64,000 nucleotides of DNA from Spizellomyces punctatus DAOM BR117 (lineage: Eukaryota). Made by a program: the position numbers and the translations under genes. Shown here piece after piece: positions 3,750 to 9,834 of this stretch. Position 1 is the stretch's first letter, and every line of letters starts with the position of its first letter. The notes below the pieces were generated by a model. It was given only the letters and a program-made list of their open reading frames with translations, was not told the origin of the DNA and made no database searches. Where the stretch lies: NCBI GenBank assembly GCA_000182565.2, contig KQ257462.1. One strand, written 5' to 3'.

Positions 3750-5247
3750 ATGGCAGATTTTTTCAAACCGTCAAAATCCGGAAGGTCAAAGTCCTCTTCA
3801 AAACCCCGTGAACCTCCAATACGACCATGGATAGAAAAATATCGACCGAAGGACATGAACGACATCAGCTCCCAGGAAGAGGTAGTCGCCGTTCTAAAAA
3901 AGACATTAGAGTCGCAGAACGTGAGTATATATGATACATACTCCAAGATAGTATTCATATTGCTGATTACCTGGCTCTTTATTGCTCTAGCTGCCGCATC
4001 TTCTTTTCTATGGACCACCGGGAACTGGGAAAACTTCTACTATTTTGGCGTTGGCGAGGGAACTGTACGGGTAAGTGGGCGCCTGATGAGACGGTGTGCG
4101 GTACTAAAGGCTAATGTGAACCGGACTGTAAAGTCCAGAACTCATAAAAGACCGAGTTCTTGAACTTAATGCCTCCGATGAGCGCGGTATAGATGTCATC
4201 CGTGCCAAAGTCAAGAACTTTGCGCGAACAACAGTGAGCGGCTCGGCAAAGTATATATCGAGATCTTGGTTGTTGCCACCAGAAAATCTGTCAACTGATG
4301 GATTTTCTATTTAGTGGCTACCCCTCCCCGCCATACAAAATCATTATTCTTGATGAAGCAGATTCCATGACGCAAGACGCTCAATCCGCCCTGCGTAGAA
4401 CAATGGAAACTTATTCGAACATTACCCGATTTTGTCTCATTTGTAATTATATCAGTCGGTACGATATGGCAGTCTGCATCGATTCACAGCCCATGCATGG
4501 TGTCGCTTATCCTGTCTATCACAGTATCATTCAACCCCTGGCCTCCCGATGCGCCAAATTCCGGTTTAAGCCCCTCGATACGACATCCACCAAACAGCGC
4601 ATCGAAGAGATATGTCGCAACGAGAGTGTGAATTGTCCTCCTGAGGTATCAAGTGCATATTCATGTCCTCCTGATATGACCCGCCTAACCTGGTTTTCAT
4701 AGACGGTTGACCATCTTGTTCGAGTCTCGGAAGGCGATATGCGGCGATCCATCATGCTCCTGCAAAGCGCGTACAGATTATATCAGTCAGAACCCATAAC
4801 AAAGGATGCCATGTCTGAGATTGCTGGGGTAAATGCCTGCCTGGTTCAGAATCAAAAGATTGAGGAAATAACGCGGTAAACCGTTTCCTGCTCCTTTTAC
4901 AGGTTGTTCCGGAACCCTTAATTGACAAGCTCATGGCGGTATGGCAGTCTAAAAACATAGCTCATATTGAAAGTACGGTGAACCAAGTCATCAAAGCCGG
5001 GTATTCTGGGGCACAGTTGATGAGTCAGGTTTGTAGTAGTTCTCCTGATGCGGGTGATTGCTGTCAAAGACGGATTTTGACACTCAAATATCTCACGTAG
5101 CTCCACGATCGTGTGATATCAGACGCCCACCTCTCTTCAATTCAGAAATCAAAAATGGCACAGACCCTAGGCCAAGTGGACAAGGCCCTTGGGGACGGCG
5201 CGAGCGAGCATTTACAGTTGTTGAGGCTGCTTGTTGCTGCATATTGA
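3750..5247 (+). CDS. RFC2: Replication factor C small subunit (yeast Rfc2 / human RFC4), multi-exon
   Basis: [25 protein letters not shown] (Walker A), [45 protein letters not shown] and GDMRR motifs; stop TGA 5245-5247. Confidence 0.95.
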
Positions 5248-5461
5248 CCGTTGTTCTTATCATGAACATTTTATCTTGCTATAATGTTAATATATTTCGG
5301 ACAGATTAAAATCAGTAATTTTCCCACTGCGTACAGGTTCCGATCCCATATTTTCCGTTACATATCTACAGGCATGGTTCTTTATTATTAACATAAAAAT
5401 CCGGAGGCGCGACCACGCCGACCATCCAGACCATCCAACCTCCCAGTATACGCACCCAACC

Positions 5462-8400
5462 TCAAGTGGGCACAATCCACTTAATCTCACCGAACAGCAT
5501 CTCATGCAACCGAATTAGGGTCCAATCGAAAATTCCGTAAGGGTGCTGTTCCATCTCGGGGTCGACCCACCATGCTGTGTAGTACATGGTGATAAGGCAC
5601 GCAATAGTCATCATTACCAGAGTTTGGAACCATGTGGTGGTAGCTGGCACTCGCGGTTTCGGTGTTGATGGCACTTGCTTCGGGCGATGACCAATTGACA
5701 ATTCGTCATCGGACCATGTGTCAGCGGGTGTGAAAGAAACCAAGGTTTGAATACTGACGGTTTTGCGCCGGGGTCGTACTGTGGTGGGCTGGGATGTATT
5801 GTGCTTCGATACTTGAAGGGTCAGTTCTGCGATAGTCGCTCGGTATTCAATGATTTGTTTTTTCAGCTCGCTGACACGTTCGGTTAGCTGGACGTTACGA
5901 CCAGTTTGTTTTTGGAGTTCTAGTAGAAAATTTTCAATGGGGAGCTCACTCCCAAACGATGGCGGGAAATCTAGTACCAACCTCTCTGTGCATCCTGTAC
6001 AGTATTCTCCGTTTGCGTCACATCCCGCTTCAGGGCCTGAATCCACCGATCTGCCTCCGCATCGTAATGTTTACGGAAGTTGAGGATGCGCCGTGTTTCC
6101 AGGACCTCGTCTTGCAGGTTTACAATATTTTCCCGAAGTCGGCGCTGTATGAAGTTACGTATTATTACACTGTACTATCACAGAGGCTAGCAATGGTTTC
6201 TTACGTTCTCTGTTTCAACGGATGTCAAAATCTCTGTGAGGCCCCTTAAACGCTCGTCTAATGAAGTTGAAAAAAGTTTTCCTTGTCAGCATGCCGCTGC
6301 ATATGCCTTGGGGTTGAATCGCATCACTAACCATCCAATTCCTCGCGCTCTCTCATCGCCTCCCGGGCTGCAAATTCCCTCTCCACCTGCTTTCTGATCG
6401 CTTTTTCCAACGCTTTAAGTCGAGCGTCCTCATCCGTTTGAACTCCCTTCCCGTAGGTTTCAACCAAGCCAACCCCAGTTTGTATGCCAATATTTTGGCT
6501 ACACACTTCTGGGTCCTCAGTCTGCAACCACTTGTTATGAACAACTGGGACGACCTGCTCCGATTGAACGCCAATTGATGTCTTCACTGCCTCCGCTTGC
6601 ACGACTTTGCTTTGCGTTTCAGTCGTTGCTACTAGACATTGCGTGCCCACTTCGCATTTCGGAACCTCATCGTGCGACCTATCAGTCTGGGTAGATGCTG
6701 AACTGATGTCTGCTGTTGTTTGCAGTCCAACGCTACAGTCCGGGCGTACCGGAAATTGCTCCATGGTTTGCACTTCCTGTTGAAGTCCAGATATCAAGCC
6801 CGAACCCGCCTGTACGGAAACCATACAGTCGGGCCGGATTGCTATCTTTCCTCCTGTTTGCACTCCTTTGTCACATGAGTCGATGATACCTGGACCCGCC
6901 TGTATACCAACGCACGCCTCATGCCGAACCACTTCATCTGTTTGCACACCCTGCACAAGTCGTTGACCCATCCCTGCCCCGAACTGCACCGATTGATCCG
7001 ACTTTGAAATCTCGTCAGTCTGTATTCCCTCGTCAGAATATCCAACACACCCAATGCCCTTCTGTGTGCCAATCGAACATTCCGGTTTCAATGAGACTGC
7101 TCCCTCGGTTTGCGTCGCCTTTGATTGCAACGCTAGCAGAAGAGCAGATTGCGATTGTAGTCCAATGGAACTACGACGTGTTCCATACATTGACGTGAGT
7201 GCCATGCCAATTGTTTGGGTAGCCTTCGCACTGGTCTGAGTTGAAAGCGTGTCAGATTGCACAGCAATTGACTGCGTCGATTTCAGCTGAGGTATATCAA
7301 TCGAAAGGACATGATCCAGTAATGGCGCTGTGGGAGATGTTTGAATTGATGCGTCCGGCGCGTGGGAAGGTTCAGTCTGGGTAGTCATATCTTGCCACTC
7401 CGTAATAACGGGGATCAACGGTAGAAAAGGTCTTTCTTGTAGCATTTCCTCCAGTTCTTCAACTGTGGGTTTGAAAGGGGATCTAGGACGTTTTGATGGC
7501 GACTTGGGCATTTTGGAGGGAGAACTGACTGGAACCCCGGAATTTGGCGAGGCAACTAAGTACGACGATAACGTAAGCTCATCCAGCAGGCATTTGACGA
7601 TGCAAACGTTGAGTTAGCTACTTACGGGTAACTACCATATGCGGCATGTTAATTAGTTTTCCCTTGGACGGCGAAAAAGTTAACGAGTCCATATCCGGAT
7701 CGGGCATCTTTAAGCGCAAGATCTTGCATTAGGCCATGCACACGCAGGGGAAACAATGGACTCAACCCACCACCATAAATCTAGCCTGATGCTTGTATTC
7801 TCTTCGTCGATGGCCCTTGCGGGATTCGTGGGAGGGGTGTGTATTCTGTAAGATATTATCAATGTAACAGTTGGACTAGGTTTTCAGGGACGCCCTCCCT
7901 TACCCCATCCTCCTGACCAGACTCTGAACCATAAGTTGAATCCGAGCACTCCATTTCCTGGTTCAATGGCTACCACCCAGCCATATGATCAGCGCCAGAC
8001 TCTATTTACACCGCCCAATTTGCATACCTTTGAAGTAGATGGCGCTTCACGAAGCATTTCCATGGTTCTCGGTGGGCGTGAACTATTGCCTAGCTCCTCT
8101 AAGTTGGCTTTGAGAGTTTCAATGGTTTCCTTTAACTCCAGATTTTCCTTTCGTAGCTCATTCATCAGATCATCAGCCTTTTCCACATCGCGTTCGAGTC
8201 TTTGTATATCATCCTCTAAACGCCCCTTGTCGTCCAATGTCTATAAAGTCAAATATATAGTGTTAACACAAGTATTCGTTGCCTCCTCCTTCAGATCATA
8301 CCCTTTGTAGGTCGCGTTCGAAATGCTGGAGGTTCGTCTCTGATGTGGCGAGTTCAGATTCCTTCCATTGCAACATATCGGCAAGTTTTTTGTTGGCAGC

Positions 8401-9834
8401 TAATGTAGCAACACCTATCGTTAACCCTTCATATATTGACTTTCCAAAATGAATTGAATACCTGTTTGCTGCTCCAGTTGATGACGCAGGTGCATGCTGT
8501 TGCTTTTTGATGCTGTCAGCTGCTTCTTTAAAGAAACTATCGAAGTTTCAAGCTGGGTAGTGATGTCAAATCAGTACCTCCGATCTCAAGACTCATCTCA
8601 CCGCAAAACTTACAGCTTCCATTTGCAGCAGCAATAACTCCTCTCTGCTCCGCACATCCCCGCACTCTTTCCTCTTGGCTGTAAGTTCGGCCTCCAACTC
8701 ATCCACTTTGCGCTGAAGCTCATGAATCTGATCATCGGCACGCCGATGAGACCTTTCCGACTCGTGAAAACGTCGTGTGATTTCAGAACATCGGCGCTTT
8801 AATGAAGATATTGTCCCGATTTGAGAAGTTATCGTGTCCTATTAATCAAGCAATTAAAGGGCGAGCCACGACCGCTTGTTGGTAATTCCCCAACCTACGT
8901 CGTCGTCTTCCTCACTGAAAGGGCTTCTGGGAGCAGAATGAAATGGGCTCCCATCTACATCAGCTTCAGAATCACTAAACAGATTCTTGCGAGGTGATGA
9001 AGACAAAGAGCTGCTAGTGTCGGAAAAAGTTGCCCTAGGGCTCCAGAACATCTCGGGGGTTCTTACGGCGCCCGCATACACGGAGTATGGCTCGTTAGCA
9101 CCATAGGTACTCATACCGCCGGCTTCAATCACTTCAAAATCTGGGCTATTGGTGTTCGAACGAGACCGAGGGGACGCTGACCCAGGGGTATGTATCTCAA
9201 ATTGGTCAAGATAATTCGGGGATTGTGTGCCTCCGGCTCGCCGAGCCGTTGGGCTGGACGTTGGACTGTGTACTGACCGTCGACGTGCCGCTTTCGCTGC
9301 TCTCTGAGCAGAGGGGAACCGTCCAGGCATGCGCACGGTTGATGGTAATGTTGGTAGTATCTGTCGTGTTGGTGGTGGTGTCGGAGTACGAAGCACTCGT
9401 GGTGGGGGTGATGGTGTCGCCATGGCTGTAGGACGCGCACGCTGAAACAGTCCCAAGAATTCCTCCGCGTCGAAACCTCTGGTCGGATCGCAGGACGCCA
9501 ATTCCTCGCATAGTTGTCGGAGACCAGACCGTTCTTTCACTGTGAAAATCTGAATACGGTGCTCATTCTCCAGATCTTCCACAAGAGGTAGTACGTTTGC
9601 GTATGGGATAAAATCGGAATTTTCGCTGTACCGTGTCCAAAGCTCTTGTGCCCGAAGGAGGAGGTATGCACTCAGAGTTGCTTCTGGCGCCGGCGTCAGG
9701 TTCTGTCAAAACGGAGGTCACTTGAAGACACATTCCAACAATATACAAAGAAAACTCACCAGTTCTGATGAAGCATCCTCTTTCCCAGCGTACGTGTCTT
9801 CAGTACTACCAGTAGACTCTAGCTCGTCCGTCAT
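5462..9834 (-). CDS. Putative KASH-domain outer nuclear membrane protein (EF-hand-like N-terminus, coiled coils, QT-motif array, C-terminal TM and tail ending VPT), multi-exon
   Basis: Minus-strand exons join through GT-AG introns from ATG 9834 (MTDELEST). Heptad-rich exons lie at about 8030-8840, and the QT repeats are in exon 6327-7557. The last exon encodes TM WFQTLVMMTIACLITMYYTAWWV plus a 33-aa tail ending IVPT*. Confidence 0.7.

Follow-up and report, generated by a model that had tools for sequence, protein, structure and literature searches.

In a 64,000-nucleotide window of contig KQ257462.1 from the chytrid Spizellomyces punctatus DAOM BR117 (assembly GCA_000182565.2), the minus-strand gene SPPG_09406 encodes a protein of 1208 residues, listed publicly as "uncharacterized", whose predicted disordered stalk carries an array of 25 LC8-type anchors and whose chain begins with an EF-hand head and ends in a KASH-type tail. 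On balance, we think it probable that SPPG_09406 is a tail-anchored KASH-type protein in which an LC8-zippered rod stands between a putative dynein-binding head and the nuclear envelope. The anchors are far more numerous than composition predicts, the motif recurs in fungal relatives with the flanking residues that LC8 prefers, and the architecture on both sides of the stalk resembles that of a known nuclear-envelope dynein adaptor.

An array of LC8-type anchors in one exon

The array is encoded by a single exon (the QT exon; 6332..7555, minus strand), which holds the stalk with its 25 anchors (residues 636-949) and the start of a second coiled coil, as defined by splice-site reading, motif counts and structure prediction. 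An earlier interpretation made from the DNA letters alone, here called the sequence-only reading, had placed this exon at 6327-7557; the observation is borne out, and splice-site reading shifts the exon by a few bases, to 7555..6332, inside a 428-codon open frame at 6327..7613 on the minus strand. The whole coding region, introns included, occupies 5462..9834 (minus strand), with the start codon at 9834-9832 and the stop codon at 5464-5462, a span read from the splice sites and from the identical public protein. The exon chain read from the DNA gives the protein sequence of SPPG_09406, the QT exon is in frame in the public gene model, and the public protein is 100% identical to the QT exon over the exon's whole length.

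Among the 39 glutamines in the 409 residues of the exon, 14 are followed by threonine. All 14 QT motifs named in the sequence-only reading are present in the minus-strand reading frame, as are the approximately 10 variant sites (QS, QA, QC, QF, QK) that it had added to them. When 408 exon residues were permuted 20000 times, QT occurred on average 3.33 times (14 observed), the stricter pattern [TVI]Q[TV] 1.56 times (12 observed), the broad anchor pattern [TVILSAC]Q[TVSCA] 7.02 times (25 observed), and QT[DEP] 0.61 times (7 observed), and for all four patterns the observed count was reached in 0 of 20000 shuffles.

In the second half of the array, the usual distance from one anchor to the next is 14 residues. 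This regular part (6444..7083, minus strand; residues 735-947), delimited by unit alignment and counts, comprises 8 two-motif units with 16 anchors, and the units align as C-x-[VI]-G-x-Q-x-G ... G-[VI]-Q-T-[DE], which bears out the two-motif unit of ~28-30 residues that had been described from the letters alone. Tandem Repeats Finder, run on the DNA of the QT exon, found nothing beyond one 19-base, two-copy stretch; because no DNA-level tandem repeat remains, the units are old duplications. As a side observation, a cysteine stands 4-5 residues before the first anchor glutamine in 5 of the 8 units (ECSIGTQ, ACVGIQ, DCMVSVQ, DCSVGLQ and KCEVGTQ), and in a parallel LC8 ladder such anchor-proximal cysteines of the two chains would face each other.

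The published preferences of LC8 call for mid-sized residues around the glutamine at -1 and +1, P, D or E at +2, no bulky aromatic residue at -2, a large side chain at -3, and at -4 a polar residue and nothing larger than alanine, with internal proline disfavoured (PMC6607443). We coded these flank rules by hand as a rough stand-in for LC8Pred, excluding GTQK and SVQF as poor anchors. Nine of the 25 sites pair a strong anchor with no disfavoured flank (QDMTTQTE, QSKATQTE, SDEGIQTD, CDKGVQTG and YGKGVQTD among them), 3 have a strong anchor and a disfavoured flank, 8 a weak anchor with clean flanks, and 5 a weak anchor with a disfavoured flank. Scoring the exon against LC8 motif rules had been suggested with the original proposal, and by this stand-in 17 of 25 sites are clean and 8 carry a disfavoured residue; shuffled sequences contain ~3.3 clean sites, and 0 of 5000 shuffles reach 17. 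The earlier count of more than 20 motifs thus holds for anchors, of which there are 25, and shrinks to 9 for sites that are both strong and rule-clean.

Across the array, -1 is T, V or I and +1 is T; D or E is frequent at +2, K, V or I at -3, and D or S at -4. The sites CDKGVQTG and YGKGVQTD have the core KGVQT in common with SDKGVQTPSK of ZFPM1, a validated binder, other validated binders being CVSVQTDPT of SON and QSVQTEDG of MAST1 (PMC6607443); EDKGVQCE of gephyrin is likewise a known LC8 site (PMC12057147). Because an anchor alone does not predict binding, the 25 anchors are therefore read as perhaps 9-17 or more functional sites, the weak ones perhaps aided by multivalency as in KANK1 (PMC12803091).

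The stalk is predicted to be disordered. A single-sequence AlphaFold2 (AF2) model of the QT exon has a mean predicted local distance difference test (pLDDT) score of 37.6 and a predicted template modelling (pTM) score of 0.20, pLDDT staying under 50 over exon residues 42-372 and confidence being limited to the terminal helix; the array stops at this helix (exon residues 372-407, pLDDT ~90), in agreement with the earlier statement that it ends before a coiled coil. The stalk has a composition rich in S, Q, V, T, G and E, and its sequence changes rapidly from one relative to the next, both of which lean the same way. An alternative in which the stalk repeats fold on their own into a beta-rich, solenoid-like repeat domain could appeal to four short strands that AF2 drew at repeat positions, and is opposed by the low pLDDT over exon residues 42-372 and the low pTM (weak evidence, coming from a single-sequence model), by a search of the Protein Data Bank (PDB) with the QT exon whose best match had E = 1, by the want of any Pfam match, and by the composition and fast divergence of the stalk. 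We rejected this alternative on these grounds and consider it barely credible. A confident beta-solenoid, which the sequence-only reading had named as the outcome that would speak against it, did not appear, as AF2 gave no confident fold for the stalk. More generally, neither the whole protein nor its exons matched any Pfam family above the cut-off, the only matches being sub-threshold ones to coiled coils.

Recurrence of the motif in fungal relatives

Word-index protein searches retrieved only SPPG_09406 itself. Relatives came from an exhaustive phmmer search of 1.84 billion representatives at E <= 0.001, which returned 98 proteins including SPPG_09406 and hence 97 relatives, with 23 matches at <= 1e-10 and 8 at <= 1e-30. 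Thirty relatives were looked up and 28 of these carried an organism name; all 28 are fungal, and none is from Ascomycota. We take 18 of the named relatives to be chytrids (Thoreauomyces, Gaertneriomyces, Geranomyces, Borealophlyctis, Rhizophlyctis, Chytriomyces, Entophlyctis, Obelidium and Synchytrium among them) and 5 to be Basidiomycota (Marasmius, Paramarasmius, Microbotryum, Violaceomyces and Pseudohyphozyma). The others belong to Basidiobolus (two proteins, both named "EF-hand domain-containing protein" in UniRef), Coemansia, Calcarisporiella and Geosiphon.

An alignment of 8 chytrid members shows four conserved blocks, namely coiled coil 1, a motif that follows it and reads L-x-x-E-L-x-D-S-x-Y-G-S-E in these proteins, the stretch RRxLNxRKHYDAExxRWI, and a V-x-x-QT site ahead of the membrane segment. 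Motifs of the form x-[V/I/T]-Q-T-[D/E] are retained by relatives at the corresponding place, in a stalk that otherwise diverges. Within the stalk, only QT, STQT and VG-x-QTDE reach consensus; Q690 and Q949 are invariant, and their surroundings are not.

With SPPG_09406 excluded, we compared the residues around 353 QT sites in the 97 relatives with background. At -1, V is enriched 3.5-fold, I 3.1-fold and T 2.0-fold; at +2, D is enriched 3.5-fold and E 1.9-fold; P is enriched 2.4-fold at +3 and G 2.2-fold at -2. QT itself occurs 357 times in these proteins, against 231.7 expected. These enrichments are the preferences of LC8.

The same positions bear on the possibility that ATM/ATR-type kinases phosphorylate the region as an SQ/TQ cluster domain, or that it is some other phospho-regulated segment. 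The array does contain several TQ and SQ sites (TTQT, STQT, ATQT), SQT is abundant in Thoreauomyces, and the TQT motifs of ASCIZ overlap an SQ/TQ cluster. The residue before the glutamine, however, is V, I or L in 14 of 25 exon anchors, and V and I are the most enriched residues at -1 in the relatives, while neither T after the glutamine nor D or E at +2 is known to be a feature of sites for phosphatidylinositol 3-kinase-related kinases; the stalk, moreover, would lie on the cytoplasmic side of a KASH protein. We give this possibility next to no weight and rejected it on these grounds.

The number of sites, counted with a relaxed anchor pattern, differs widely between species. Chytriomyces hyalinus has ~22 sites with a 12-residue period and the form x-S-x-x-V-Q-T-[DE], and the stalk of Thoreauomyces carries ~25 under the relaxed pattern, most of them weak; there are ~10 in Entophlyctis, Obelidium and Siphonaria, 6 in Borealophlyctis and 3-5 in Gaertneriomyces, and the Agaricales carry 4-6 non-repeated sites of the form STQTDP or EVQTEE. 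At p<0.05, 35 of 70 long relatives show enrichment of the pattern [TVISAC]QT[DEP]. Because motif counts vary widely and the motif is not universal, the array is best read as a lineage-variable module that has been repeatedly expanded and contracted. A range from 0 to ~25 motifs between species is also what a tunable spacer, as the sequence-only reading had it, would show. Two further observations concern individual relatives. Cysteines occur near the anchors of C. hyalinus too (SACAVQT, SCGVQV, SCEVQT). In a local search, the strongest matches to the EF-hand head (E ~1e-14) came from the Geranomyces proteins P0068 and P0073, which have a membrane segment ~16 residues from an AFVPV end and lack a QT array; they may represent a paralogue or a lineage that lost the array.

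Membrane anchor, KASH-type tail and N-terminal architecture

The uncharged 23-residue segment 1153-1175 (WFQTLVMMTIACLITMYYTAWWV; 5564..5632, minus strand) is predicted to span the membrane. It holds the highest Kyte-Doolittle window of the protein (1.59 at 1157-1175, the next best elsewhere being 0.92, from a hydropathy scan only), a value just below the arbitrary threshold of 1.6. The criteria of Zhou et al. (2014) place a KASH tail directly after the transmembrane domain and at the C-terminus, with a length of 9-40 residues and an end pattern of [DTVAMPLIFY][VAPIL]PT in plants or [PATHQL]PP[QTVFILM] in animals, and also ask for such an end in most members of a family and for a SUN protein that the tail binds and on which localisation to the nuclear envelope depends (PMC4050730); the phi-VPT end is also described in Zhou 2012 (PMC3265956). 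In SPPG_09406, the KASH-type tail, predicted to be luminal (5465..5563, minus strand), follows right after the hydrophobic segment, begins at D1176, comprises 33 residues (1176-1208) and ends in W-I-V-P-T, of which IVPT fits the plant pattern.

Ends of this kind recur among the 97 relatives: 49 finish in P[TVSMQ] and 28 in PT, the fraction expected from composition for PT being 0.0034. Among relatives of at least 500 residues, 46 of 70 have a P[TVSMQ] end, and much of the remainder consists of partial or fused gene models; the exact patterns of Zhou et al. are found in 5 (plant) and 3 (animal) of the 97. Because the relatives also carry a hydrophobic segment, some 30-70 residues before their end, together with these recurrent P[TVSMQ] ends, we read the fungal family as a KASH family. 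On the strength of its tail and hydrophobic segment, SPPG_09406 itself is a predicted KASH-type protein of the outer nuclear membrane with putative SUN binding, and the earlier guess of a membrane-anchored protein at the nuclear surface has held up.

Some public models of relatives need care. P0008 (Gaertneriomyces) is fused to a neighbouring repeat-rich protein of ~1200 residues and P0011 (Phlyctochytrium planicorne), recorded as "Cell division control protein 48 B", is fused too; because these models are fused, neither their lengths nor their ends describe the KASH protein. P0009 and P0036 are labelled partial.

At the other end of SPPG_09406, residues ~30-115 (9433..9690, minus strand) form a degenerate EF-hand pair, assigned from a profile of N-terminal domains, AF2 and Foldseek. 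The profile was built from the N-terminal ~110 residues of SPPG_09406 and 18 relatives, and the PDB matches listed for these 19 sequences are almost all EF-hand proteins, with secretagogin the best (2e-07), followed by troponin C and centrin. Pfam EF-hand_7 matches 4 of the 19 domains, that of SPPG_09406 not among them. AF2 models the N-terminal domain with a pLDDT of 82.2 as four helices and two short strands, and Foldseek gives a template modelling score of ~0.49 over a head query that includes the disordered end.

Residues ~300-495 (8085..8838, minus strand; three exons with introns) are predicted to form coiled coil 1, which phmmer alignments and the consensus of the 8 chytrid proteins mark as the most conserved part of the family. 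Most phmmer matches align here, and the coiled-coil Pfam matches at 297-484 are all sub-threshold. A small exon follows (7904..7969, minus strand; residues 503-524) with the short acidic motif L-x-x-E-[LM]-x-x-S-x-Y-G-S-E, in which L504 and E507 are invariant. Spindly motifs take the form L-hydrophobic-x-E-hydrophobic. The post-coiled-coil motif has a polar second position; in the order of parts, its place corresponds to that of KASH5's putative Spindly motif (PMC10071310).

Beyond the array, coiled coil 2 (5805..6443, minus strand, with introns) begins as the helix of pLDDT ~90 at the end of the QT exon. It contains the block RRxLNxRKHYDAExxRWI (6040..6093, minus strand; residues 1017-1034), around which R1020, H1028, D1030, E1032 and L1040 are invariant in the chytrid alignment, and the core RKH[YF]DAE is present in 9 of 97 relatives; it looks like a putative partner-binding site. 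No other short stretch of the chytrid proteins (8 sequences) is as sharply conserved. A predicted complex of two copies of residues 930-1100, covering the last motifs and coiled coil 2, scored 0.26 against a mark of 0.32 and counts neither way. A single LC8-type site, KTVSIQTL (site 1114; 5741..5764, minus strand), lies ~40 residues ahead of the membrane segment.

For transcription, the raw reads of one RNA run with the S. punctatus species label were mapped on the window; two further runs read contiguously with the introns and are thus DNA. The run placed 314 reads, all in one orientation, with a depth of 76 at 5400-5550 (the 3' end of the gene) and 17.6 at 5551-5701, and no reads upstream of 8571. 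Over the QT exon the depth was 0.09-0.68 in 6 of 9 bins and 0 in 3 of 9. This profile fits a 3'-biased library of a minus-strand transcript. With an antisense library, the reads piled up at 5400-5700 might in principle come instead from the neighbouring gene on the plus strand (4238-5100), whose 3' end converges on that of the KASH gene. That neighbour contains pieces of open reading frame that are presumably those of a small subunit of replication factor C. An RNA check of the exon, proposed at the outset, therefore gave thin reads over 6 of 9 bins and left the junctions unproven. Separately, a low-depth DNA contig (depth 3) lacks one base each at 6613, 6619 and 6626, all in one 14-base stretch inside the QT exon; this net loss of 3 bases would leave the frame intact, and could be a strain difference or an assembly error.

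A proposed LC8 rod on the nuclear envelope

The closest architectural parallel is KASH5/CCDC155, a vertebrate component of the meiotic LINC complex and a dynein-activating adaptor, which also combines an EF-hand pair lacking calcium-binding residues, a coiled coil of ~190 residues, a short motif, and then an unstructured region, a membrane segment and a KASH tail (PMC10071310). The EF-hands of KASH5 (36-103) bind dynein light intermediate chain without calcium, its coiled coil spans 166-350 and its putative Spindly motif 371-376, and activation needs sequence beyond the coiled coil (PMC10071310). The nearest named language-model clusters of SPPG_09406 are LRMP/KASH5, at 0.88 and 0.86 for residues 1-530 and 0.86 for the whole protein, followed by Rab11-FIP3, ninein and other EF-hand coiled-coil proteins, scores below 0.9 being leads only. 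Adaptors of the EF-hand class that activate dynein use an EF-hand pair to bind helix 1 of the dynein light intermediate chain, and SPPG_09406 has the predicted fold of such a pair. Neither the EF-hand head nor the likeness to KASH5 had been noticed in the sequence-only reading. In contrast to the IVPT of SPPG_09406, the tail of KASH5 ends in PPPX, and the accessible text of PMC10071310 mentions no QT array for it; KASH5 and LRMP are vertebrate proteins, whereas the family described here is fungal. We therefore state the likeness for architecture only, be it due to homology or to convergence.

Other KASH proteins share single features. The plant WIP and SINE proteins have the phi-VPT end, and IVPT matches the plant pattern exactly (PMC3265956, PMC4050730), although their cytoplasmic domains are unrelated and their tails shorter. 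UNC-83 of C. elegans is a KASH protein with a cytoplasmic binding region for the LC8 homologue DLC-1 (PMC2953438); unlike SPPG_09406, it has no reported motif array and no EF-hand, and it recruits dynein via BICD-1/EGAL-1/DLC-1 and NUD-2/LIS-1.

For the stalk, the precedents are LC8 ladders. The dynein-interacting segment of yeast Nup159 is fungal, lies on the cytoplasmic face of the nuclear envelope, and has closely spaced QT motifs on which LC8/Dyn2 stacks into a rod (PMC5963919, PMC12803091). It has 5 sites joined by linkers of 4-5 residues, and the 12-14-residue spacing of the family arrays equals an 8-10-residue motif plus a linker of this type (PMC12057147, PMC12803091). Nup159 differs in its 5 sites against 9-25 candidates in SPPG_09406, and in being a nucleoporin without an EF-hand head rather than a membrane-anchored KASH protein. 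In the L2 linker of KANK1, many cooperative LC8 dimers make a long rod of a disordered linker, with a stoichiometry of ~18 by isothermal titration calorimetry, 15 beads by electron microscopy and a length of >50 nm when open (PMC12803091, a preprint); the spacer role proposed for SPPG_09406 is that of this rod. KANK1, however, is an animal cortical adaptor whose motifs are mostly non-canonical and weak, with one TQT, whereas SPPG_09406 has 12 strong [TVI]Q[TV] sites in a regular repeat. ASCIZ/ATMIN matches it in high valency, with 11 sites in human and 7 in Drosophila, "the most by far" in 2018, against a valency of 3 in Chica and Bassoon (PMC5963919), and differs as a zinc-finger transcription factor and LC8 sensor that forms heterogeneous, low-occupancy complexes.

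By analogy with these systems, we propose that the luminal phi-VPT tail of SPPG_09406 would bind a SUN protein, while the flanking coiled coils would hold two chains parallel. LC8 (DYNLL/Dyn2) dimers would then bind matching motifs on both chains, stacking every 12-14 residues, so that the disordered stalk would become a rod of beads on a string, like those of Nup159 and KANK1. Taking KANK1 as the measure, 9-25 occupied sites at ~3.5 nm each would give a rod of roughly 30-90 nm, which would keep the putative dynein-binding head off the envelope and stiffen the force-bearing link, and gain or loss of motifs between species would set its length. The LC8 ladder suggested by the sequence-only reading accords with the motif rules, the spacing and the enrichment in relatives; LC8 binding itself is what we infer from these.

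A number of observations weigh against this proposal. Among the sites, 8 of 25 carry a disfavoured residue and 13 of 25 have weak anchors (QS, QA, QC or LQT). Of 19 peptides predicted to bind LC8 with a position-specific scoring matrix, 7 bound, and the non-binders include several SIQT peptides, one of which, AKSIQTSPT of FMN2, is close to DASIQTSPT of the array (PMC6607443). Among the relatives, just 21 of 70 long ones show enrichment of [TVISAC]QT[DEP] at p<0.01, and 28 of 70 lack the motif, including those of Basidiobolus, Calcarisporiella, Geosiphon and Coemansia; of two proteins from Geranomyces, in the same order as Spizellomyces, one lacks the motif and the other has one non-enriched site. 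The disorder call comes from a single-sequence model. In the head, the top Foldseek matches (troponin C, calmodulin and centrin) are weak, with E >= 0.18, and EF-hand_9 (PF14658) is not matched by any of the 19 N-terminal domains; Pfam KASH_CCD (PF14662) reaches E = 0.019 and 15.4 bits, against a cut-off of 43.3, amid coiled-coil noise. The RNA support for the QT exon, finally, amounts to a handful of reads with no splice joints listed.

Some of these points would suit a rival explanation, by which the stalk has no part in LC8 binding and is a tandem repeat that has diverged, or a low-complexity spacer, serving only as a flexible tether, its QT motifs being left over from the duplicated unit. 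The 8 units are clearly derived by duplication, many anchor-bearing peptides fail to bind LC8 (PMC6607443), and 28 of 70 long relatives lack the motif. Yet with no DNA-level repeat left the units are old, and their anchors persist while the flanks drift; arrays of 12- and 28-residue units, as well as the non-repeated sites of the Basidiomycota, converge on an x[VIT]QT[DE] core. We regard a spacer of this kind as unlikely.

It is also conceivable that the array binds LC8 without forming a structural rod, as a sink or sensor, or as a platform that recruits dynein directly through LC8. The dynein-related architecture of SPPG_09406 would suit such a platform, whereas LC8 is known as a hub for dimerisation rather than an adaptor for cargo. 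ASCIZ does sense LC8 through multivalent binding (PMC5963919), but Pfam finds no DNA-binding or signalling domain in SPPG_09406, and its short regular linkers and flanking coiled coils are closer to Nup159 and KANK1 than to ASCIZ (PMC12803091). We therefore give the sink, sensor or platform little credence, and nothing supports the sensor role that the sequence-only reading had put forward as its alternative. With a structural rod, a known mechanism, the LC8 ladder, would have a new carrier, whose valency lies at the upper end of the range on record.

Our literature search, which covered subscription journals only in small part, retrieved no publication that describes LC8 motif arrays in KASH proteins or a fungal EF-hand KASH family, and turned up no such nucleus-dynein adaptor for chytrids, zygomycete-grade fungi or basidiomycetes. 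In a term look-up, the accessible text of a 2025 review of KASH proteins (PMC12581424) does not contain LC8, and its single fungal mention is yeast cortical dynein.

Only a few proteins are known to form multivalent LC8 ladders (5 sites in Nup159, 11 in ASCIZ, 15-18 in KANK1), and how motif number and spacing relate to rod length and cooperativity is a question in this field. SPPG_09406, which may be among the most multivalent LC8 partners, is a natural source of arrays with up to ~25 regularly spaced motifs, and its relatives with 0, 3-6, ~10 and ~22 motifs in one protein frame amount to a natural experiment. S. punctatus is, in addition, a genetically tractable chytrid. More speculatively, and with odds that we hold to be well short of even, fungi outside the Ascomycota may keep an ancient KASH5-like dynein adaptor that predates vertebrates, and the stalk of chytrids and basidiomycetes may be an LC8-assembled ruler, its motif number (0 to ~25, with 12- and 28-residue units expanded independently) fixing how far the nucleus stands from the microtubule-organising centre or basal body and how stiff the connection is. 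S. punctatus and C. hyalinus would in that case have the highest LC8 valency known, above the 15-18 of KANK1. In chytrids, zygomycete-grade fungi and basidiomycetes, the uncharacterised fungal KASH family, with its KASH5-like architecture, is a candidate link that would join the nucleus to dynein or to the centrosome.

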